Positions 1 to 56,643 of a DNA stretch of 64,000 nt are shown here, piece by piece (positions within the stretch are counted from its first letter, which is position 1; the number at the start of each line of letters is the position of its first letter). The translations under genes were made by a program, and so were the position numbers. The DNA is from Mobula birostris (lineage: Eukaryota). The notes under the pieces were generated by a model that was not told the DNA's origin, searched no databases, and saw nothing but the letters and a program-made list of their open reading frames with translations. The DNA lies in assembly GCF_030028105.1 (NCBI RefSeq), contig NC_092393.1:21927825-21991824 (forward strand), read 5' to 3'.

Positions 1-396
1 CTTTCTACCCAATTACCGAATATGTAAACATTGGCCTAACGAGTCCATGGCAGGTGAAAATGGGCTATTACTAATTGCACTTCCCAGTTCTCGGTCTATT
101 CTTTCCAGTAGTTTGTACACATGTGACAGATCAAGTGACTATCCATGAACTTTTTAAAATGTGATGAGGGTTTCTGTTCTCACCAGCTATTGAAGCAGTG
201 AGGTCTATACCCTTACAACTCTTTGGCTGAACAACTTCTCATAATTCTCAAATTCTTTTGCAAATAATCTAACAGTGTAAAGCTTTTCCACTAATTTCGT
301 TACCTCTTTATTACAGTAACTTCAACTTTTTCTATATGTTCTCCAGGCCTACCATAAACTCAAGAGTATCATATAGCACCTGGTATCAGTTAAAAA

Positions 397-490
397 CAAC
401 ACGCACAACACGCTGGAGGAACTCAGCAGGTCGGGCAGCATCCATGGAAATGAACAGTCAACATTTCGGGCCGAGACCCTTCATCAGGGT
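397..490 (-). mobile_element. 94-nt Penelope-like pLTR mini-insertion with hammerhead motif
   Basis: Minus strand reads accCTGATGAAGGGTCTCGGCCCGAAATGTTGACTG...GATGCTGCCCGACCTGCTGAGTTCCTCCAGC; 13-bp TSD tatcagttaaaaa at 384-396 and 491-503. Confidence 0.85.
456..487 (-). ncRNA. Minimal type I hammerhead ribozyme motif (CpG-decayed)
   Basis: CTGATGA core, stem II GGGT-CTCG-GCCC, GAAA core, then TGTTGAC (inferred consensus CGTCGAC). Confidence 0.7.
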
Positions 491-1279
491 TATCAGTTAA
501 AAATCAGTTAGAAAGATTTATTCAAATCCAAAACATACTTTCCTTTGATAACAAAATCTTGGCCTATTGATAAAAGCAAAGATATGTTTTCAGACTACAA
601 CAAAACAGCTGAAAATTTCAGGCTTTGTTTGTTGGCTGACAAAGTACACTAAAATTTGGCATCCATATATAATCAGACAAATGCTTTACATTATGATGAC
701 ATGAATCTATTTAAGAAAAACCAATACTTCGCATTATCCAGTTCTATATTTTAACTTAATTGTGACATCAATCCATAATTCCTATATAATTATCAATTGG
801 CAAACCTTTCTTTTATTCCTCGATTTCCCTTCCATTACAATTGGCACCCTATCGCAAAAATTTCCAAAATAAAATGGAAAAAAAATCCAAATTGAAATGA
901 CAAGGTCAGTGAACATGACTTGATTTCAAATTAGATTTTAAAACATGCATAAAATATTCCGGATCAATTTACTTGGCCTCATATTTCTTAGTTAACTTGA
1001 TGGCTCTATTTTTCATTTAACATTAGAATAGTTTTACCAACAATTACTGTGTCCCTCTGGACTACATGACCAGACTGTGCTGAAAGGAATGAAGTCTAAG
1101 CCTTTGCTCATTTGAAAACTAAACATTTAATTCTGCAGCTAGTTCAGAAGATTTTCTGTTCCTTCCAAAACAGACACTGCTTTCATTCCAACCCCATTTT
1201 CTACAGATGAAAAGCACCTTCCATGCCCCATACAATGTAAACATGCCTCTCATTAGCACCACCTGCAGAGGCTTCATCT

Positions 1280-4079
1280 TAGTCCGTAAGCCAGGATGCC
1301 AAATTTGGGCCACTGGTACCATCTGTGGGGAATAATTCTTATAGTGATTTTTGGCAAGGTATATACTCCTAGTGCTAGAACATAAGTGATAGCATTGCAG
1401 CAGTGGTAGCTTTCTGTGAGGGAGACTGGGAGTGGCACCTCCACGCTATAAGAACCATGATGCCATGGTGCTTTGTCTATGATAAGATGAATTCTGCCAG
1501 GTACCTGTCCCCTTACTTTGCTCAGATGATGAACCTCCCAGAGAAGAAACCTTCTGTGAAACCTTCAAGACAGGCCAATTCTCAGTGCAGCTGTCAAGTA
1601 ACAACCCCTTTGGGCAGATCCCTGTGGACCAGGCTATTGAAGCCACAGTGAACAAAGACACACTGACTCCTGGAGGCACATCACGGTTCAGCCTGAATGC
1701 TGGAGCTATCAAGCATTACTACATAACAGCTGAGCACCACAGTACATTGCTGGGACAGTTAAGGGAGATGGTGCAAGGCAACAAATCAGAGCTTTGTCAT
1801 GCGGAGCTACAGCGGCCGAAAATCCAGAAAGATGAGGAAGCAGTTTCAGCAGTGGTTAGCCTCATACATGCATGGGTCAATCCATTTGCTGAGAAGCAGG
1901 ACCTCATTAGCATCTCTACGGCAAAGGCAGTCCACAAGGACATTGCCTCCGACCTGATGAAGGCATATGAGATTGGTGAGCAATGCTATGCAACCTTCAA
2001 CGATGAGAGACTAGAGGAAGACCCACTAGCAAAGAATTTCCATGACACAATGAAAACCAACAAGTTGAAAACATTCAGGGATATGTGTAAGAAGAGAGAA
2101 GTGAAATCAAATGAGAGGGCGATCATCTTGAAAGCAGGCAAGTCTTTGTTTGAACACATCATAGTGATGGGCACAAGGGCGCAGTCTACGTATGGAGGAT
2201 ATCCTTTCTCATCTCCTTGGACCATTGCCCTGGGCCCTGTCCACACCAGAAGGATTGCTGAGAAAGACAAATAAAGCTACTTTAGCCACAACCTTGCTGA
2301 AAAATGTAGCAGTAGAAGAGCAACACTAAGGAAAATCTGCTACAGTGATTGATGGAATGACTTGGTCCAAAGGAGAAAGATGATCAAGTTACTTTCAGAG
2401 ATGTTGCCACAACAATTCTGGGTATGGCTCTGAGGGAAGGCAGTCAGAGTAGCAGAATAGATGTTGTGTTCAACACATACAAGGAGAACTCTATCAAGAA
2501 TAGTGAAAGATCTCTACGGGGTGAAGAGATTGGTCATGAGTTGCAAGGTATCACAGGCACACAGATGGTGAGGCAGTGGAGGAGCTTCCTGACCAAAGTC
2601 AGTAACAAAAATAGTCTCATTAGCTTCATAGTCCATGAATGGAGCAAGGCAGAGTACAGAGCAAAGCTACAGGAGAAGATTCTGTATGCAACTGTGAATG
2701 ACAAATGTTACAGAATCGCATCTCAAGACAGTGAGGAGGTATCAGCTCTTCAGTCTCAACAAGAAGAAGCAGATGGCCATCTACTTCTCCATGCTGCCCA
2801 TGCCACAAAAGATGGATACCAGTCTATCGTGATCTGCTCAGAAGACACAGATGTCTTTACCATATCTTTAGCATTTTTGTGACAGATTGAGGCCCCATTG
2901 TTCTAGAAGTGTGGCACTAGGACCCGTACAAGTCTTTTAGACATCAGGAAGGTTGCTGTCACTGTTGGCATAGAGGTTTGTAGGGCTCTCATTTGGTTGC
3001 ACGTATATACAGGATGTGACACTGTAAGTGCTTTTGCAGGCAAAGGGAAGACAAGTACCCTAAAACTTCTGACCAGCAACAGGGAAACTCAGGACACATT
3101 CTTAGAGTTGGATCAGGAATGGGACCTCTCCCCAGAACTGATGGACAAACTGGAGGCATTTACATGACTCCTGTATGCCCCAAAAGTATCGACCACCAAG
3201 GTCAATGAGCTCAGGTATCACCTTTTCTGTGCCAAAAAAGATGAAATCGAAAGTCATCAACTCCCACCATGCAATGACTGCTTAACAAAATATGCACAGT
3301 GAGCCAACTACCAGGCTGATATATGGAGAAGATGTTTGGAGAAGGACCCACAAGTGTCAAGCCCTGTTGGCAGAGGACGGAAGATGGAGAGAGAAGAGGA
3401 AGCTGAACAGTTGGTGGTGCATTGAATGGAAGGCCAGCCAGCACCTAATGCCATCCTGGATCTACTGGCCTGTAACTGACCAAAAAAATGTTCACTCCCA
3501 AGATGTATGTGTGTTGCAAATGGCCTCAGGTGTACTGACATGTTTAGACTGGCAGACTGTGAGAACCAGGCATCCACCTCAGAGAGTGTGCAAAGTTCAG
3601 ATGAAGACGTGGAAGACTTGGAAAATTATTATGATTATTAATAGGTTATGAAAGTATGGAAAACAAAGTATGCAAAGCAGTCTTTGATTAAATATATTCA
3701 CTTCACAACCAAATGGGGCCTAGATTATGGCCGTGTGGAACCCCACATTTGAATTATTGTACTGTAATTCTATATGCTATGACAAAAGCTTAAGATTGTT
3801 TTGATTTGATACAATATGGAAAATATCATGACATTGATAAAACTCCAGAAATCTCTCCAAATGAGGTTTTACACCTTTTGGAGGGTGGGGTAACATTTTC
3901 TGCTGTACTGATGTTAATATGGAATACTGTATATACAAAAAGTGATTACTTACCTGAAGTAATAAAGCTACCACTGGTGGAATGATTTTCTAACTCTAGA
4001 GATGTATACCTTGCCAAAAATCACTATGAACATTATTCCGCTCAGATGGTACCGACCATCCTCACTGGCTCACGGACTA
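1280..4079 (+). mobile_element. AcademX DNA transposon, internally deleted non-autonomous copy 1
   Basis: Imperfect TIRs 1280-1413 and 3964-4079 (TAGTCCGTAAGCCAG...CTGGCTCACGGACTA); 3-bp TSD tct at 1277-1279 and 4080-4082; coding remnants of transposase, XPG nuclease and Cys-rich finger. Confidence 0.85.
1414..3640 (+). pseudogene. Disrupted Academ protein (C-terminal transposase part, XPG/FEN1-like nuclease, Cys finger)
   Basis: Across frames: EGDWEWHLHA, NSARYL, DQAIE, QEEADGHLLLHAAHA, SEDTDVF, GCDTVSAFAGKGK, CN*PKKCSLPRCMCVANGLRCTD; several frameshifts and stops. Confidence 0.85.
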
Positions 4080-4454
4080 TCTCATTAAATGATGACAACT
4101 ATCTGCTCCATTCCAAGTTTTCTTTGCACATCAGGCTGTGAAATAAATCATAAAATCGGAGAGTTTGGGCTTTGCTTTCAAAAAGTGGCAGCAAAACCCT
4201 GTAATTCGTGTATGTATGTTGCTTCTGAAAATGGGTAAGCTGACATGCCAGACAGTCTTGTTCCAGGTGTTGAGAAAGACTGGTGCTCCCAAACTGCCAT
4301 CATCTTAACTGCAGGAATCTACCTGACAGAAATGATAGGTCAAACTCTGCACATGTAGCAAGCAGAAGTTTTGACTAAGCCACGCTCCATGGCTTAACCC
4401 GTTGGCAATACAGTCAGAAATTGTGATTATTTCTGAAAGTCTCATTTTTATATT

Positions 4455-4760
4455 TGTTTATGGGATGTTAATGTCACTGGCATGGCGAATATTTATTATC
4501 TCTCTCTCTCTGCCCTTTAGATGAATGGTTGGTTAAGCCTGTAGGTCTGAAGTTATGTATTGATTGGACTAGGGAGTGATAGTAGATTTCATTCTATGAA
4601 GGACACAATGAACCAGATGTCTTTAACAATCACCATTTCTATTGGTGGTTTTGTATCCCAGATTCACTGACTTAAGTTCGTCTAAATGCCATGGTGGAAT
4701 TCAATGAATGTCTCTGAATTAATATTCTAGGAATCTTGACACTAGTCTATGAATTTAACT
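4455..4760 (-). mobile_element. Old tRNA-derived SINE (possibly Meta-type)
   Basis: Shares the catctggttca...gtcctt motif and 3' tail with 26110-26395; family name recalled, not searched. Confidence 0.45.
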
Positions 4761-13918: not shown

Positions 13919-14105
13919 CCAACACACTCAAAATGCTGGAGGAACTCAGCAGGCCAGACAGCATCTAGGAAAAGAGTACAGTCGATGTTTCAGGCTGAAA
14001 CCCTTCAGCAGGACTCTTTTCCTAAATGCTGCCCGGCCTGCTGAGTTCCTCCAGCATTTTGTGTGTATTGTTTGGATTTCCAGCATCTGCAGATTTTCTC
14101 TCATT
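13919..14105. mobile_element. Fold-back Penelope-like pLTR insertion nested in CR1
   Basis: Inverted arms about 13921-13977 and 14013-14066; hammerhead remnant in the loop; repeated target tggcttttta at 13909-13918 and 14111-14120. Confidence 0.8.
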
Positions 14106-14979
14106 TGAGATGGCTTTTTAGAGCAGCTTGCGGTTGCACCCACGAGGGGAAAGGCAATTCTTGATTGGGTGTTGTGTAATCAGCCATATTTGATAATGGA
14201 GCTTAAGGTAAAGGAATCCTTATAAGACAATGATCATAATATGGTAGAATTCACCCTGCAGTTTGAGAAGCTAAAGACAGATATATCGGTATTATAGTGA
14301 AGCAAATGGAATTACAGAGGTATGCACGAGGACCTAGCCAAATTTGATTAGAAGGGGACATGAGCAGGGATAACAACAGAGCAGCAATGGCGGGAGTTTC
14401 TGGGAGCAATTCGGAAGGCGCAGAATAGATATATCCCAATGGTGAACAAATATTCTAAAGAGTGGATTACGCAACTGTGGCTGATGAGGTAAGTTAAAGA
14501 CAACATAAAAGCAAATGAGAGGGCATATAATATCGCAAAAATTAGAGGAAAGTTAGAAGATTGAGAAGCTATTAAAAACCAACAGAAGACAACCAAAAAA
14601 AACATAAGGAGGGAAAAGATGATGTATGAAGGTCAGCTAGCCAATAATATAAAAGAAGATTCCAAGAGTTTTTTTTTTACATATATAAAGAGTAAAAATA
14701 GTTGTGTGAGCAGATATCATACTGCTAGGAAACAATAAAGACTGTTAATAAGTATTTTGCATCAGTCTTCACTGTGGAAAACACAAGCAGTATGCCAAAA
14801 ATTCGAAAGTGTCAGCGGGCAGAAGTGAGTGTGGTTGTTATACTAAAGAGAAGATGCTTGCCAAGCTGAAAAGTCTGAAGATAGATAAGTCACCTGGACT
14901 AGATGGAGTACACCCGCAGGGTTCTGAAAGGGGTAGCTGATGAGATTGTGGAGGCATTTGTAATGGCATTTCAGAATCA

Positions 14980-18467: not shown

Positions 18468-18845
18468 GGCAGCATGGTAGCGTAGTGCTTAGCACACACT
18501 TCACAGTACAGGCGACCCAGGTTCAATTCCCACTGCTGTCTGTAAGGAGTTCGAGTTTGTACATTCTCCCCATGACCACATTGGTTTCCTCCAGGTGCTA
18601 CGGTTTTCTCCCGAAGTCTAAAGCTGTACCGGAAGGTAGGTTAATGTGTCATTGTAAATTGTGCTGAAATTAGGATAGTTTAAATCAGGGATTCAAGCAA
18701 CACACATCAAAGTTGCTGGTGAACGCAGCAGGCCAGGCAGCATCTCTAGGAAGAGGTACAGTCGACTTATCAGGCCGAGACCCTTCGTTAAATCAGGGAT
18801 TGCTGGGTCTATTGGGCACTGTATCTCAATAAGTAATAAATAAAT
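18468..18845 (+). mobile_element. V-SINE (HE1-like) interrupted by a 94-nt insertion
   Basis: tRNA head ggtagcgtagtg / ggttcaattccc, V-domain ggtttcctccaggtgct, aataaa tail. Confidence 0.8.
18694..18787 (-). mobile_element. 94-nt Penelope-like pLTR mini-insertion
   Basis: 14-bp TSD ttaaatcagggatt at 18680-18693 and 18788-18801; sequence matches pLTR 36009-36096. Confidence 0.85.
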
Positions 18846-20606: not shown

Positions 20607-20692
20607 CGGACTTGACTCGAAATGTCGACTGCTTATTCCCTGCCATAAATGCTGACTGACCTACTGAGTTCCTCCAGCATTTTGTATATTGG
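20607..20692 (+). mobile_element. Old short Penelope-like pLTR fragment
   Basis: cgaaatgtcgactg...atgctgactgacctactgagttcctccagcattttg. Confidence 0.65.
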
Positions 20693-29514: not shown

Positions 29515-30165
29515 GCAAACAAGAGAACATCTGCAGATGCTGGAAATTCAAGCAGCACATACAAAATGCTGGAGGAACTCAGCAGGTCAGGCAACATCTA
29601 TGGAAATGAATAGATAGGCAACATTTCAGACCAAGATCTTTCTTCAGGATTGAGAAGGAAGGGAGAAAATGCCAGAATAAAAAAGCGGAATTAGGGGAAG
29701 GTGGCTAGCTGGAAGGTAATAGGGGTGAAGCCAGGTGGGTGGGAAGGTCAAGAACTAGAGAAGAAAGAATCTGATTGTAGATGAGAGTGGACCATGAGAG
29801 AGAGGGAAGGAGGATGGGACCCAGGGGGAGGTGGTAGGCAGATGAGAAGAGGTAAAAGGTCAGAGTGGGGATCAGAAAAAGGGGGAGGAAATTTGTTGAC
29901 CAGAAGTAGAAATCGATATTCATGCCATCAAGTTGAAGGCTACCCAGACGGGAATATAAGGCATTTCTCTTCCACCCTGAGGGTGGCCTCATCTTGGCAC
30001 AAGAAGAAGCCATGGACTGACATGTCTCAATGGAAATGGGAATGGGAATTAACATGTTTGCCCGCAGGGAAGTCCCGCTTATTTGGATAGTGCAGAGCTG
30101 TTTGACAAAACAGTCTATTTGCGACAAGTCTTACCAATGCAAAGGAGGCTGTATCGGGAGCACAT
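29515..30165 (-). mobile_element. Penelope-like element 3' portion (GIY-YIG C-terminus and pLTR), decayed
   Basis: LGSLQLDGMNIDF; degenerate hammerhead CTGAAGA...GAAATGTT at 29617-29650. Confidence 0.8.
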
Positions 30166-32300: not shown

Positions 32301-32756
32301 ATTACAGAAATAGTGGTAAATAGTGGTAAACCAGAAACTTCGGAGTTCAAATCAATTTGTGGGTATTTATACAATTAAATACTATAACATAACTGTTGTA
32401 ACTATGAATGACTGCAGATAATGAAAACTAATGATTTGGATCTTTGTCAATGTAAAGAAACAAGTAATCCTTTCTGGTCCAGCGTATGGATGTAATTCCA
32501 GTCCTTATCATTACAGGTTTGATTCCCAATTGTTCGGAGATGTTCCACAAGTAGAGTGGGGTAAGAAGTCTGGAATTGTTGGTATGTTTTGTATGCAAAG
32601 AATCAAATACTGGGGCTAGTCTTCTTTGGTCTTGCAACCTTTTAGAAAAATTCCAAAATGATATGAAATAGTAGTCCAGCCAATTTGTAGGTCTTAGCAA
32701 ATGCAGTCATTGTAGGAATCAAACTACTTTCTTTTAAAACAATATTCCTAATTATT

Positions 32757-32850
32757 GTGTCCTGACGAAGGGTCTTGGCCTGAAACATTGACTATACCTC
32801 TTCCTACAGATGCTGCCTGCCCTGCTGCATTCCACCAGCATTTTGTGTGG
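32757..32850 (+). mobile_element. 94-nt Penelope-like pLTR mini-insertion with hammerhead motif
   Basis: gtcCTGACGAagggtcttggcctGAAACATTgac; 13-bp TSD attcctaattatt at 32744-32756 and 32851-32863. Confidence 0.85.
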
Positions 32851-33139
32851 ATTCCTAATTATTAACAGACTGTTCCTGAGTCTTGTACGCTTTACTCCTA
32901 CTTCCTGTGAATCCAGTGTATCCACAGCTTTTTTGACATTCTTTCTATATTATTGAAAAACATTCAGGTGATCGACCACACGCAGGAGCGGAAAAGAGGA
33001 AACTGTGTGATAATGGATAAATGATGCGTAGCTTTGCTTTTCAAAACTTGTTGAGCTGTGGGAGGACTGATGGGACGAAGAATTCAAGAAGAATGAGTGC
33101 TATACTTTAAACAACCCTCCGTGGTAACAAAGATTCAGG

Positions 33140-33745: not shown

Positions 33746-36008
33746 AAGAAAATGACTAATAGTTTTGATTCCAAAGGATTGCCCAGAAATTCATTCATTC
33801 TTATTGGCTGAAAAATCACAGTAATGCTTGTAAATCTAATTCTTGCCAACTATCGTCTGCCAGCCCTTGTCTCACCCTTTCATCTCACCTCCTTGTACTG
33901 GTCATTTCCCCAATAGTGTCTCAGTTCCAGAATCTCAACCCAAAATCGCAACTATCGCTTTGCCTCAGCAGATGCTGCTTGACTTGTTGAAATCGTCCAC
34001 ATGTTTGCTTTCTGCTCAGGACTCTGGCATCTACAGATCCTTACACCTCCACCTTATATCTGAACCATTTTCCCAAATTACATGTCAGGTTGAAATCTTC
34101 ACATGATGATGGAGATGATTTCAGGGGAAAAAAATCTGCTCCAGTGAATACAAACAACCAGGTCAACACTATATAAAGAATTCTTTTAAAATTATAATTC
34201 AAGGAAAGTGCAGATCAAAGAATTGGAAATAAACACATAATTCTAGCTTTTGTAATACAAACATTTATCACCCATGCCTCTCTGGTAAAAAGAAATCATA
34301 TGGTACACCCAACAGTTATCTACAACAAATCAGTCTGCACTTTCAATAAAATAAACCATGTCTGACCTCTTTACTTCCACTGCTGAAGTGTTTGAATGGA
34401 TAATACTACTTTCCCTAAAAGCATGATGAAATGTTCACTGATTTACACATCATTAATCTGGCAATCCAGACGTTCCAACAGCCCACACTGCAATCTACAC
34501 TCCCACCACACTCCCACCCATTGGTTAAAATTGACAGCCTTAGTGTTTAGAAGTAGTACATTTCCATCAGATTATATGACATTTCTAAGAACAAGTATTC
34601 ATTCAGCCATTTATCTGGACTGTGCATGCGTGCATTCGCTTTATCTGAAGAAATTCATTGTACACTTGTGGATTATATCTCTGTCTCTACAAGACAGTAG
34701 AGATATGTTCAAATGAATTCTGCCTGGTAGCAGAGCTTCAATAACTTCTGTCTATTTCAGGTTGGCACCTTGCCCAACTTGAAACTTGAGGTAGCTGTTA
34801 ACAAACTACCCATTTGCAACGTGGCCCATTAACATGTTTTTAATGACCACAATTAATGCCAACTAATATTGAAGGATTTATTATTCTCCTGTTGGCTAAT
34901 ATAACCAACTTGCATAAGATGTGTCAGAAACAAGCATGAATTATTAAAACAAAATACATATTTTATCACTGCTAATTCTTAAGATTCCTTGATAAATATA
35001 TTGTTTATTGAATTATTCTTTGCATGAGAATTGACTCGATAGGTTATTGTAGAATTTACTTAAGTACCCTCTTTATTTGACTGTTTTTCTTTGGAATACT
35101 GCAATTATATCTGCAGGATAATGGCTGATAATGGTTTTCAAGTGAGCTATGCTTTACAGAGGTGCCATCGAGTAACAAGAGCAAAGCACTAATATTTCAC
35201 CTATAACTTGAATGCATGTGTTCATTGCATTCTCATTGACCTTTCGTTGATTAACATTTTCTGCAAGGTACAGGTTCTATTTGCCTTAGTCGCCATTTGT
35301 CCATCTTTCCTTACTCACCTTTCACCCTTCTTTTTTAGAAGATGCTGATTATTGATGGAGCTTGACTCTGGTGCCTGAGATTATTATCGTGCATTGCCAC
35401 CACTTTAGTCATGACCTGAACATTTTAAGTAATGCAATGAAGGACAGACTGAGCTCAATCTCAACAAAGCATTTCCCATTAATTGATTACTGCATAGCAA
35501 GTGAAATGATAAAATCTAACCTTTGAAATACTCGGCAACACACAAAAAATGACGGAGGAGCTCAGCTGGTCAGGCAGCATCTATTGAAGTGAATGAACAG
35601 ACAACGTTTTGGGCAGAGACCTTTCTTCAGGGCTGGAAACAAAGGGTGATGACGCCAGAATAAAAAGGTGGGGGGAGCAGAAGGAGATGAGCTGGAAGGT
35701 GAAGGTGAAGCCAGGTGGGTGGGAAAGGTCAAGAGCTGGAAAATCTGATAGGAGAGGAGAGTGGATGGTAGGAGAAAGAAAAGGAGGAAAAGACCCAGGG
35801 GGAGGTGATAGGGTGAAAAGAGGTAAGCGACCACAGTGGGGAATAGAGGAAGCGGGAGGGGGAAGGAAATATTATTTTACTGAAGGAAAAATCAATATTC
35901 ATGCCATCAGGTTGGAGGCTACACAGATGGAATATAAGATATTGCTCCTCCACCCTGGAGTGGGGGGGGAGTGCGCGGGGGTGCTAATCCAGGCACAAAA
36001 GGAGGCCA

Positions 36009-36682
36009 CACACATAAAAGTTGCTGGTGAACGCAGCAGGCCAGGCAGCATCTCTAGGAAGAGGTAAAGTCGAAGTTTCGGGCCGAGACCCTTCGTCAGG
36101 ACTAACTGAAGGAAGAGCTAGTAAGAGATTTGAAAGTGGGGGGGGAGGGGGAGATCCAAAATGATAGGAGAAGACAGGAGGGGGAGGGATGGAGCCAAGT
36201 GTTGGACAGTTGATTGGCAAAAAGGATATAAGAGGATCATGGGACAGGAGGCCTGGAGAGAAAGAAAGCGGGGGGGGGGGGAGCCCAGAGGATGGGCAAG
36301 GGGTATAGTGAGAGGGACAGAAGGAGAAAAAGGAGAGGGAGAGAAAGAATGTGTGTTTATAAATAAATAACGGATGGGGTACGAGGGGGAGGTGGGGCAT
36401 TAGCGAAAGTTTGAGAATTCAATGTTCATGCCATCAGGTTGGAGACTACCCAGACAGAATATAAGGTGTTCTTCCTCCAACCTGAGTGTGGCTTCATCTT
36501 TACAGTAGAGGAGGCCATGGATAGACATATCAGAATGAGAATGGGACGTGGGATTAAAATGTGTGGCCACTGGGAGATCCTGCTTTCTCTGGCACACAGA
36601 GCGCAGGTGTTCAGTGAAACGATCTCCCAGTCTGCGTCGGGTCTCGCAATTAAAATGTGTGGCCACTGGGAGATCCTGCTTT
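36009..36682 (-). mobile_element. Younger Penelope-like element (GIY-YIG C-terminus, pLTR, hammerhead)
   Basis: ETRRRLGDRFTEHLRSV...PVATHFN...LEEEHLIFCLGSLQPDGMN; pLTR with hammerhead. Confidence 0.85.
36068..36103 (-). ncRNA. Minimal type I hammerhead ribozyme motif
   Basis: agtc-CTGACGA-AGGGTCTCGGCCC-GAAAC-TTC-gact: stem I agtc/gact, both core boxes intact. Confidence 0.75.
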
Positions 36683-46913: not shown

Positions 46914-49364
46914 TAGTCCGTGAGCCAGGACCCCAAATTTGGGCCACTGGTACCATCTGGGGGGAATAATTCTTACAGTGATTTTTGGTAAAGTATATAC
47001 CACTAGTGCTAGAAAATATGTGATAACATTGCAGCGGTGGTAGCTTTCTGTGAGGAGGACTGGGAGTTGCACCTCCATGCTATAAGAATCATCCTTTGCC
47101 TATGATAAGATGAATTCTGCCAGGTACCTGTCCCCTTACTTTGCTCAGATGATGAACCTCCCAGAGAAGAAACCTTCTGTGAAACCTTCAAGACAGGCCA
47201 ATTCTCAGTGCAGCTGTCAAGTAACAACCCCTTTGGGCAGTTCCCTGTGGACCAGGCTATTGAAGCCACAGTGAACAAAGACACACAGACTCCTGGAGGC
47301 ACATCATGGTTCAGCGTGAATGCTGGAGCTATCAAGCGTTACTACATAACAGCTGAGCACCGCAGTGGATTCCTGGGACAGTTAAGGGAGATGGTGCAAG
47401 GCAACAAATCAGAGCTTTGTCATGCGGAGCTACAGCGGCCAAGAATCCAGAAAGATGAGGAAGCAGTTTCAGCAGTGGTTAGCCTCATACATGCATGGGT
47501 CAACCCATTTGCTGAGCAGCGGGACCTCATTAGAATCTCTACGGCAAAGGCAGCCCACAAGGACATTGCCTCCGACCTGATGAAGGCATATGAGATTGGT
47601 GAGCAATGCTATGCAACCTTCAAGGATGAGAGACTAGAGGAAGACCCACCAGCAAAGAAACTCCATGACCCAATGAAAGCCAACAAGCTGAAAGCATTCA
47701 GTGATATGTGTAAGAAGAGAGAAGTGAAATCAAATGGGAGGGCGATCATCTTGAAAGCAGACAGGTCTTTGTTTGAACACATCATAGTGATGGCACAAGG
47801 GCGCAGTCTACGTATGGAGGATATCCTTTCTCATCCCCTTAGACCATTGCCCTGGGCCCTGTCCACGCCAGAAAGATTGCTGAGAAAGACAAATAAAGCT
47901 ACTTTAGCCACAACCTTGCAGAAAAATGTAGCAGTAGAAGAGCAACTCCCAGGAAACTCTGCTACAGTAGTTGATGGAATGAACTCGGTCCAAAGAGTGA
48001 AAGATGATCAAGTTACTTTCAGAGATGTTGCCACAACAATTGTGGGTATGGCTCTGAGGGAAGGCAGTCAGAGTAACAGAATAGATGTTGTGTTCGACAC
48101 AAACAAGGAGAACTCTATCAAGAATAGTGAAAGATCTCTACGGGGTGAAGAGACTGGTCATGAGTTGCAAGGTATCACAGGCACACAGATGGTGAGGCTG
48201 TGGAGGAGCTTCCTGACCAAAGTCAGTTACAAAAATTGTCTCATTAGCTTCATAGTCCATGAATGGAGGAAGGCAGAGTACAGAGCAAAGCTACAGGAGA
48301 AGATTCTGTATGCAACTGTGAATGACAAATGTTACAGAATCACATCTCAAGACAGTGAGGAGGTGTCAGCTCTTCAGTGTCAACAAGAAGAAGCAGATGG
48401 CCATCTACTTCTCCATGCTGCCCATGCCACAAGAGAAGGACACCAGTCTGTAGTGATCTGCTCAGAAGACACAGAAGTCTTTATCATGTCTTTATTATTT
48501 TGTGACAAGATTGAGGCCCGATTATTCCAGAAGTGTGGCACTAGAACCCGTACAAGGCTTGTAGACATCAGGAATGTTGCTGTCACTGTTGGCATTGAGG
48601 TTTGTAGGGCTCTCATTTGGTTGCACGCATATATAGGATGTGACACTGTAAGCGCTTTTGCAGGCAAAGGGAAGACAAGTGCCTGGAACTTCTGACCACG
48701 AACAGGAAAACTCAGGACACATTCTTCGAGTTGGGTCAGGATCCACTGGCCTGTAACTGTCCAAAAAAATGTTCACTCCCAAGATGTATGTGTTTGCAAA
48801 TGGCCTCAGATGTACTGACATGCGTAGACTGGCAGACTGTGAGAAAAAGGCATCCACCTCAGAGAGTGTGGAATGATTAGATGAAGATGTGGAAGACATG
48901 AAAGACTTGGAAAATTATTATGATTATTAAATAGGTTATGGAAGTATGGAAAACAAAGTATGGAAAGCAGTCTTCATTTTACAACCAAATAGGGCTTAGG
49001 TTATGGCCGTGTGGAACCCCATATTCGAATCGTTGTACTGTAATTCTATATGCTATGACAAAAGCTTAATTTTATTTTGATTTGATACAATATGGAAAAT
49101 ATCATGACATTGATAAAACTCCAGAAATCTCTCCAAATGAGGTTTTTTACCATTTGGGGGGTGTGGTAACATTTTCTGCTGTACTGTTGTTAATATGGAA
49201 TACTGTATATACAAAAAGTGATTACTTATTTTAAGTAATAAAGCTACCACTGGTGGAATGCTATCACATATTTTCTAACTCTAGAGATGTATACCTTGCC
49301 AAAAATCACTATGAGCATTATTCCCCTCAGATGGTACCGACCAACCCTACTGGCTTACAGACTA
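46914..49364 (+). mobile_element. AcademX DNA transposon, non-autonomous copy 2
   Basis: TIRs 46914-47047 and 49240-49364 (TAGTCCGTGAGCCAG...CTGGCTTACAGACTA); colinear with copy 1; inserted in an old pLTR (46700-46913 and 49365-49420). Confidence 0.85.
47208..48695 (+). CDS. Academ-derived open frame (transposase C-terminal part plus XPG/FEN1-like nuclease), 495 codons, probably non-functional
   Basis: DQAIE, VVDGM, VVFDT, QEEADGHLLLHAAHA, SEDTEV, GCDTVSAFAGKGK. Confidence 0.6.
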   Translation: MQLSSNNPFGQFPVDQAIEATVNKDTQTPGGTSWFSVNAGAIKRYYITAEHRSGFLGQLREMVQGNKSELCHAELQRPRIQKDEEAVSAVVSLIHAWVNPFAEQRDLIRISTAKAAHKDIASDLMKAYEIGEQCYATFKDERLEEDPPAKKLHDPMKANKLKAFSDMCKKREVKSNGRAIILKADRSLFEHIIVMAQGRSLRMEDILSHPLRPLPWALSTPERLLRKTNKATLATTLQKNVAVEEQLPGNSATVVDGMNSVQRVKDDQVTFRDVATTIVGMALREGSQSNRIDVVFDTNKENSIKNSERSLRGEETGHELQGITGTQMVRLWRSFLTKVSYKNCLISFIVHEWRKAEYRAKLQEKILYATVNDKCYRITSQDSEEVSALQCQQEEADGHLLLHAAHATREGHQSVVICSEDTEVFIMSLLFCDKIEARLFQKCGTRTRTRLVDIRNVAVTVGIEVCRALIWLHAYIGCDTVSAFAGKGKTSAWNF

Positions 49365-55620: not shown

Positions 55621-56377
55621 CTGTGACTCTAAGTTTTGAGGAAATGCGAGCAGGTATGCAATTCTGTCTGTAAGCGTGCTGCAAGTTTGGCAATCGCGTG
55701 TGCGCACACTTGAGCATAAAAGTTGCAACTGATTGTTTGCACTTCGCAAATTAACCCTTTCTCGACTGCAGTACTCACAGATGAAAACAAAATCATTTGA
55801 ATTCCTAAAAGAATCAAACAGCCAAACCTGTGCCATATTAATGCAGGTCATAATTAATAATTTGAATAGAGAGACAATGTAAGTATAACATAATTTAAAA
55901 CTTTTTGAATTAATTGTGATCACTTAGATATTTATTAGTTGTATTCATGTGTTCTACAATTTTGTTCATTTTTTTCATATTTAAGTATTATTAATAGGAT
56001 TAGAGATGTTCAATAAAATGTTAACTGCATTTTAAAATGTTTGAATATTTTAGGTATTCAGAAACAGTCAATGTTTTTGTCAACTTAGTCAGCTGTCAAA
56101 GATCTTTTCAAGACTGTGTTTTATACTAGCCATGTCATATCACACAACAGTATTTATACGCACAAGGCCTTGCTACCATACTGATTTCCATCACTGAGGA
56201 TCAGACCATACTCTGCCAGCAGAAAATCAGGCTCACGATGTACATCGGCAATAAGTATAGCTTAATGTTGGCTGGAAATCCTGAAATATTTCATGCAAAA
56301 CCATCTTTGCAACAAAGATTGTGATTTAGTCCTTGCAATGAAACATCACAGTATCCTGAATATATTAAGATGATAAT

Positions 56378-56643
56378 AACACACAAAAATTGTTAGAAGA
56401 ACTCAGCAAGCCAGACAAATCTATAGAGGGGATAAACAGTCAATGTTTTGGGTTGAGACCCCTCATCAGGAAGGAGGCAGAAGTCAGAGTAAGAAGATGG
56501 GAGGAGGAGAAGGTGTACAAGCTGGCAGGAGCTAGGTGAGAGCAGGTGATGGGGAAAGTGAGTGGGTGGAAGAAGTAAGAAGCCCGGAGGTGAAGGTGGA
56601 AGAGATAAATGACTGAAGAAGAAGGAATCTAATGGGAGAGGAT
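56378..56643 (-). mobile_element. Penelope-like pLTR fragment
   Basis: CTGATGAggggtctcaacccAAAACATTgactg hammerhead remnant at 56436-56469. Confidence 0.7.

Follow-up and report, generated by a model that had tools for sequence, protein, structure and literature searches.

The window is a stretch of 64,000 nt from the genome of Mobula birostris (contig NC_092393.1, positions 21,927,825 to 21,991,824), and 11 profile matches to one Penelope-like element (PLE) family are found in it. Three of the 11 are short inserts, here called a, b, and c. Each measures 94 nt and lies between perfect target-site duplications (TSDs) of 13, 14, and 13 bp, respectively, as the first-pass annotation had described. 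Positions are counted from the C of CTGANGA (0), which places the predicted hammerhead cut between +27 and +28, and 3' offsets are measured from the end of CCAGC. Sites A and B are the two sites at which the 3' ends of copies cluster. The coordinates are collected in Table 1.

Table 1. PLE-derived features of the window, with strand and the basis of the call where given.
Feature	Position	Strand	Basis
TSD copy 1 of insert a (13 bp)	384..396	.	sequence
Insert a, 94-nt PLE end of the older subfamily, running from the hammerhead front edge (5') to site A (3', 397)	397..490	-	
Hammerhead remnant of insert a; CTGATGA 487-481, predicted cut 460/459	456..487	-	sequence, family pattern
TSD copy 2 of insert a	491..503	.	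sequence
Head-to-head insertion of the same PLE family, 192 nt, 10-bp TSD	13919..14110	.	
TSD copy 1 of insert b (14 bp)	18680..18693	.	sequence
Insert b, young subfamily, site A	18694..18787	-	sequence, survey
TSD copy 2 of insert b	18788..18801	.	sequence
Old short PLE fragment, TSD not found	20608..20690	+	
Longer 5'-truncated PLE copy of the older subfamily, started at B and extending into the endonuclease end	29518..30159	-	
TSD copy 1 of insert c (13 bp)	32744..32756	.	sequence
Insert c, site A; element homology begins at 32759 (position -3), after 2 extra 5' bases	32757..32850	+	
TSD copy 2 of insert c	32851..32863	.	sequence
Longer 5'-truncated PLE copy, older subfamily	35524..35957	-	
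Longer 5'-truncated PLE copy, young subfamily, start A; last 66 ORF codons	36005..36643	-	
Old 5'-truncated PLE copy	56375..56641	-	

One arm of the head-to-head insertion runs from A to a stop at -4, and the other arm starts at B. An Rfam match to Plastid-psbJ-4 at 13940-14051 (37.5 bits, below gathering) is an artefact of the fold-back of this insertion. The window also carries two copies of an unrelated repeat of ~2.5 kb (1280-3984 and 46914-49260), which are 85-97% identical and have short inverted ends near 1315-1413 and 49240-49338.

Read from the sequence, the 5' ends of the inserts lie at -3 (a), +4 (b), and -5 (c) relative to CTGA, the 3' ends lie 15, 21, and 11 nt past CCAGC, and all three inserts include 24-33 nt 5' of the predicted cut, in agreement with the original description. 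The length of "exactly" 94 nt, also claimed there, holds only if each ambiguous base is assigned to the TSD, and the edges are ambiguous by 1-4 nt. Insert b has 1 nt at its 5' edge and 2-3 nt at its 3' edge in common with the element, so that 94-98 nt may be element-derived. In insert c, two leading bases match neither element nor target and the final base is possibly a mutated TSD base, which gives 91-94 nt. Insert a likewise begins with 1-2 bases foreign to both. The CTGA-CCAGC spacing is 76, 77, and 78 nt in a, b, and c, and identity to the nearest reference copy is 82%, 97%, and 91%; as judged from these sequences, the inserts are of different subfamilies and ages. In a control with mismatched flank pairs, a TSD score of >=9 was reached in 2/195 and of >=10 in 1/195. 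TSDs of such quality in three inserts are not due to chance. A SINE with its own master would have fixed ends and its own diagnostic sequence, and neither is seen in the inserts. The view that no single SINE master is involved is upheld, as the ends vary, the subfamilies differ, and short copies grade into long ones.

The parent of the inserts is an abundant EN+ PLE, assigned by sequence to the Neptune/Nematis type under the criterion of Craig et al. 2021 (PMC8557442), a Cys-x4-Cys-x2-Cys linker motif that was read in translations of long copies. The Penelope-like origin and the minimal hammerhead region proposed for the inserts are both supported. The host genome is 4.0 Gb. A sample of 1.02 Mb (1.024 Mb, chosen regardless of the element except for the block of the window) gave 198 profile matches, a density of roughly 190 copies per Mb. 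Across the genome, an exact 31-mer of the hammerhead motif occurs 6,759 times and a 29-mer downstream of the motif at least 45,340 times. Upstream in long copies are the 3' UTR, the GIY-YIG end, the linker, and the RT. Pfam RVT_1 matches two long copies just below its curated cut-off of 29.6 bits (L278, E=2.7e-6, 27.7 bits; L277, E=1.4e-4, 22.1 bits), and GIY-YIG (PF01541) matches a third, L132, at 22.6 bits, equal to the cut-off. The 66-aa ORF end from the window alone gave no PF01541 match.

L278 (302-4000; G000:C6:192404761-192408760) is a near full-length copy. It is composed of a repeat, an ATG at +163, a broken ORF, and a second repeat, with a unit of 3513 nt and the core at 391. The ORF is frameshifted, and the RT domain lies in one long broken ORF. 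The repeat at both ends places the hammerhead, A, and B in the 5' leader and again at the 3' end. The 5' hammerhead is preceded by 85 nt of 3' UTR, and an inverted 303-nt piece of the RT region stands ahead of that stretch. The family has the traits of EN+ PLEs, namely a partial tandem pLTR (L278), 88 inverted events, and an A/B tail of ~36 nt.

The full minimal hammerhead pattern is present in 63/190 spanning copies, and the pairs are retained in 72-96%. Pair changes in the 190 copies are G-C to G-U only, with no double covariation. At the family level the sequence fits the minimal motif of Cervera and de la Pena 2014 (PMC4209133), with cleavage predicted. Calling the 94-nt copies "ribozyme inserts" is an overstatement, as none of the three retains an intact motif. 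Insert a has no 5' strand of helix I and a mutated C15.2; insert b is without CUGA, and its GAAA has become GAUA; insert c has a changed G16.2 and a broken helix III palindrome. Monomer folds of a, b, and c yielded no hammerhead, and an Rfam search of the window gave no hammerhead match.

The survey of the family pooled five sets. Set R is the 1.024-Mb sample, and set T is 695 kb around listed downstream-anchor matches on contig C1, covering the first 7.8 Mb of one contig. Sets P, J, and Q are search loci, J being selected on the 5' junction and Q on likeness to insert c. Together they hold 633 unique matches, 225 with a TSD score of >=9; TSD length has its mode at 13-14 bp (133/225). The 3' ends of these 225 are bimodal and ~36 nt apart, at ~+12 to +19 (site A) and ~+48 to +55 (site B), and loose-end peaks at both sites also occur in contigs of runs X1 and X5. 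The simple TSD-flanked inserts number 44; of these, 22 have site A as their start, 19 have site B, and 3 start elsewhere. Internal priming, one of the origins first suggested, is supported by these ends.

The other origin first suggested is a length ruler, in which a cDNA or RNP footprint of ~94 nt sets the length wherever priming starts. This would have been new for a retrotransposon. In its favour, all three short simple inserts of the window measure 94 nt with offsetting ends, and the chance of three identical lengths within the class is p=0.0036 (p=0.063 for a range of <=2 nt). Finding three short stubs in one window has a p of 0.001-0.007. Exact-triple windows are expected in 0.26-1.5 of 62,729, a low figure if only ~83 windows of this genome are considered, and the exact 94-nt triple does not recur outside the window. 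A further 94-nt insert starts at A in L131. Of 80 TSD-flanked B arms, 8 have lengths of 89-99 nt, which counts against the absence of a ruler, and 12 have lengths of 125-135 nt.

The sample as a whole does not bear out a fixed length, and insert length depends on the start site. The sharp 94-nt peak that had been predicted is absent, since 1/41 simple TSD-flanked inserts outside the window is of that length, and this one (L131) conceals 6 nt of microhomology. A inserts outside the window measure 61, 92, 94, 98, 99, 100, 100, 102, 102, and 108 nt, followed by 138-1071 nt; the short class of 92-108 nt is a small sample (n=9), in which one insert, in L256, comes with an inverted partner and is possibly a miscall (the 98-nt insert may belong to an inverted event). 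B inserts measure 62, 70, 127, 130, 131, 134, 134, 140, 149, and 159 nt, followed by 226-1244 nt. None of the 19 simple B inserts falls at 71-126 nt, and six fall at 127-140 nt. The co-variation of 5' and 3' ends that had been proposed is also absent, with a rho of -0.02 for 32 A arms at the edge (window block excluded) and a length SD of 5.5 for these arms against 5.7 expected under independent ends.

Under a ruler, B copies should have their 5' ends displaced by 36 nt; no such displacement is seen, and the ruler fails. For 5' ends in -30..+60, A and B agree (KS p=0.89), whereas A shifted by 36 differs from B (p=2e-4). Young arms of sets R and T (253 counted, 38 unclassified arms excluded) stop in -7..+5 in 19/85 A arms and 18/130 B arms, while only 7/130 B arms stop in the ruler-shifted window +29..+41. 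At the edge, arms stop at a rate of 0.020 per nt, versus 0.005-0.007 on either side. In set J, 21/30 central copies stop at the edge; of these, 15 end at B and 6 at A. With outside A stubs of 92-108 nt, short B inserts of 127-140 nt, and 94s that are themselves ambiguous, a ruler is highly improbable. The identical 94s are most likely a coincidence, even if an unlikely draw. The verdict on the inserts is that they are real, that their origin is ordinary, and that the ruler is unsupported.

Length in this family is probably set by an internal start and a shared stop at the hammerhead edge, the latter likely an RNA 5' end. The stop is sharpest at -2 to -4, where 30/143 young copies with an intact core end, and copies that start at A and at B stop preferentially at this same edge. 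The pile-up spans -7..+5 and holds ~1/5 of young copies, which counts against a run-off. Given the position of the edge in the leader of the near full-length copy, the stubs are likely run-off cDNAs of uncleaved linear RNA. The stop is then likely the 5' end of that transcript. The sequence around -4 fits the initiator consensus YYANWYY. The preferred stop predicts a transcription start within a few bases.

In the proposed mechanism, an RT-endonuclease protein, probably a dimer, would nick both DNA strands, and cDNA would be primed at A and/or B. As template, an uncleaved linear transcript with its start near -4/-3 would serve. Priming on the 5' copy of the repeat would end in run-off after ~95-100 nt (A) or ~130-135 nt (B), and priming on the 3' copy would give long, randomly truncated copies. 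The 94s of the window would be a chance draw from the A-type class, with a mean of ~94-100 nt and an SD of ~5.5 nt.

A stall of the RT on a longer RNA, at a protein, a pyrimidine tract, or a structure, would keep the starts at A and B and explain the pile-up differently. A stall at bound protein or structure would give a similar 5' pattern, ~4/5 of young copies pass the site (102/143 are not truncated within -1..-9), and the pile-up is several nt wide with a pyrimidine tract just upstream. Against this, helix I should already be unwound once the polymerase arrives at its 5' strand, and the 5' repeat copy of L278 sits at the leader. The junctions also point away from a stall. In 100 listed junctions classified by eye, G precedes the element in 26/45 with non-element flanks (p=0.02), T precedes that G in 18/26 (p=3e-5), and other junctions repeat a few core bases; small extra pieces of this kind are expected at a template end. 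A stall is on balance unlikely.

In the junction lists, classified by eye, 5' junctions at -3/-4 often bear G, TG, (C)TGA, or ACGA. These pieces may result from stutter or re-annealing at the template end, or the G may be cap-templated. L1 provides a parallel for a cap-derived G. Here the excess of such a G is modest, and it is confounded by inverted-arm homology and stutter. Near 5040-5101 of L261, an inverted junction contains ~38 nt of leader and ORF start downstream of B, contents which identify the template as the 5' copy of the repeat. At ~605-669 (-) of L081, a 61-nt TSD-flanked insert has +28, the predicted cut, as its 5' end (microhomology, 2 nt), and is possibly a trace of cleaved RNA. 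A few clean cases end at +28, inverted junctions included, an enrichment that is doubtful, and most nearby calls are alignment limits in old copies.

A 3' splice junction at the 5' stop is very unlikely. The acceptor would lie before helix I, as in Drosophila virilis, where the intron end is described as the 5' end of helix I (PMC4209133). A branch-point-like motif, a pyrimidine tract, and two AGs do precede the motif in all long copies (window 36100-36130 (-)). However, an upstream exon common to the junction lists was not found, the TSD-flanked stubs begin 0-3 nt from element homology, and none of the 15 joints listed, of 138 in the run contigs, is GT..AG. D. virilis, by the account in PMC2377424, has 46 nt before the intron.

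Three related candidates were rejected. A short spliced first exon, suggested by GTG in front of TCCTGA, is an artefact of searching with insert c, and this GTG is found at ~15 of ~72 truncated junctions (100 listed, by eye), as composition predicts. A model with a host exon or a distant TSD fails on 40 unpaired front-edge arms, which have neither common upstream sequence nor an informative distant TSD. The joint 4181-4501 in the run contigs ends in CA..TT and is not a splice; most likely it reflects the different 3' UTR of the older subfamily.

The first-pass annotation held that the template was uncleaved or religated into a circle. The uncleaved part is supported and the circular part is disfavoured, since a circular RNA offers no end at the front edge of the hammerhead (-3). 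Stubs copied from religated circular RNA, as a separate retrozyme-like family, would account for inserts that span the predicted cut site, and circular RNAs have been proposed for PLEs (PMC4209133). L278 runs 85 nt upstream past the edge of the 5' repeat, and to account for this a circle, a multimer, or a template jump is required. But the three inserts are single, TSD-flanked, of different subfamilies, and without an intact hammerhead; the element's short copies form a continuum with its kilobase copies; and hammerhead cleavage is dispensable in vitro in the work described in PMC11167929. A circular origin of the stubs is extremely improbable, though a circle could still serve long copies such as L278.

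Inverted events follow a pairing rule. In 82/88 an A arm is paired with a B arm, and neither A+A nor B+B is observed. Across sets R, T, P, J, and Q, exact TSDs of 13-14 bp are present at 59 sites, and the flanks on either side of the TSD favour T at positions 3, 7, and 8, counted outward (31, 37, and 34 of 50 flanks for 13-bp TSDs; 38, 49, and 43 of 68 flanks for 14-bp TSDs; background 0.29). With this pattern the target preference is two-fold symmetric, as expected of a dimeric endonuclease. According to Frangieh et al. 2024 (PMC11167929), the Poseidon_Ac element of the green anole (PAc) has its tail defined by two internal RT starts, uses mainly unprocessed RNA as substrate, and shows nicking and extension of both strands. 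A dimer that nicks both strands here is in line with that both-strand activity and with the predicted dimer.

Retroviral minus-strand strong-stop DNA is a short cDNA in the terminal repeat, made by priming near the RNA 5' end and run-off. The stubs may likewise be fossils of a strong-stop step in PLE replication, a wider reading that is held tentatively and is, as a whole, rather doubtful. A dimeric RT-endonuclease would cut a symmetric target 13-14 bp apart, and priming, close to the capped RNA 5' end, would use site A for one strand and site B for the other. The cDNA would run off at the transcription start, and a full element would need a jump to the 3' repeat. Failed jumps would leave stubs of ~100 and ~130 nt, and a successful jump would build the pLTR tandem. 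If the run-off holds, the likeness to retroviral strong-stop lies in a short cDNA, fixed in extent, within a terminal repeat. Unlike in retroviruses, the primer would be nicked target DNA with no tRNA site, the product would be integrated directly, and strand transfer is hypothetical.

The element type, the hammerhead, truncation, inversion, the tail, and internal starts are already in print. No literature report was found of a PLE strong-stop or run-off class, the A+B rule, or the symmetric target; the supplements of PMC11167929 may show short copies.

Several known systems resemble the family in part. Like the minimal type I hammerheads of metazoan PLEs described by Cervera and de la Pena (PMC4209133), its motif has a CUGANGA core, a short helix I, an extra base before helix II, a G10.1-C/U11.1 pair, and a palindromic ACGU in place of helix III, while the three inserts, unlike those hammerheads, bear only broken or truncated motifs. 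Non-LTR retrozymes, as presented by Li et al. (bioRxiv 10.64898/2026.07.22.740005), are likewise short, hammerhead-bearing, derived from PLE pLTRs, and non-coding. Retrozymes are tandem units with complete motifs, whereas the inserts are single, TSD-flanked dead ends and do not belong with them.

Canonical EN+ PLEs of the Neptune/Nematis type (PMC8557442, PMC3846280) share with the family an RT, a Zn-finger-like linker, and a GIY-YIG at the C terminus. Heavy 5' truncation, a partial tandem pLTR, an inverted 5' copy, a tail at one end, and TSDs are also as described for them. Craig et al. 2021 (PMC8557442) and Arkhipova et al. 2013 (PMC3846280) attribute the tail to endonuclease resolution and inversions to self-priming. 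In contrast to that account, the counts here are better explained by a single primer on each strand, at A and B.

How PLEs integrate is poorly understood, and PAc is among the closest comparisons. Like PAc (PMC11167929), the family has two internal starts 30-40 nt apart, downstream of the hammerhead and near the ORF start, and appears to use uncleaved RNA and to have both strands nicked and extended. PAc belongs to the Penelope/Poseidon clade and starts in an AC-rich stem-loop inside the ORF, whereas the starts here are GU-rich and precede the ATG. In its main text, the PAc study reports no genomic short run-off class, A+B inversion rule, or symmetric target. The family offers two starts, one per strand, together with a symmetric target staggered by 13-14 bp, and its in vivo counts fit and extend the single in vitro study.
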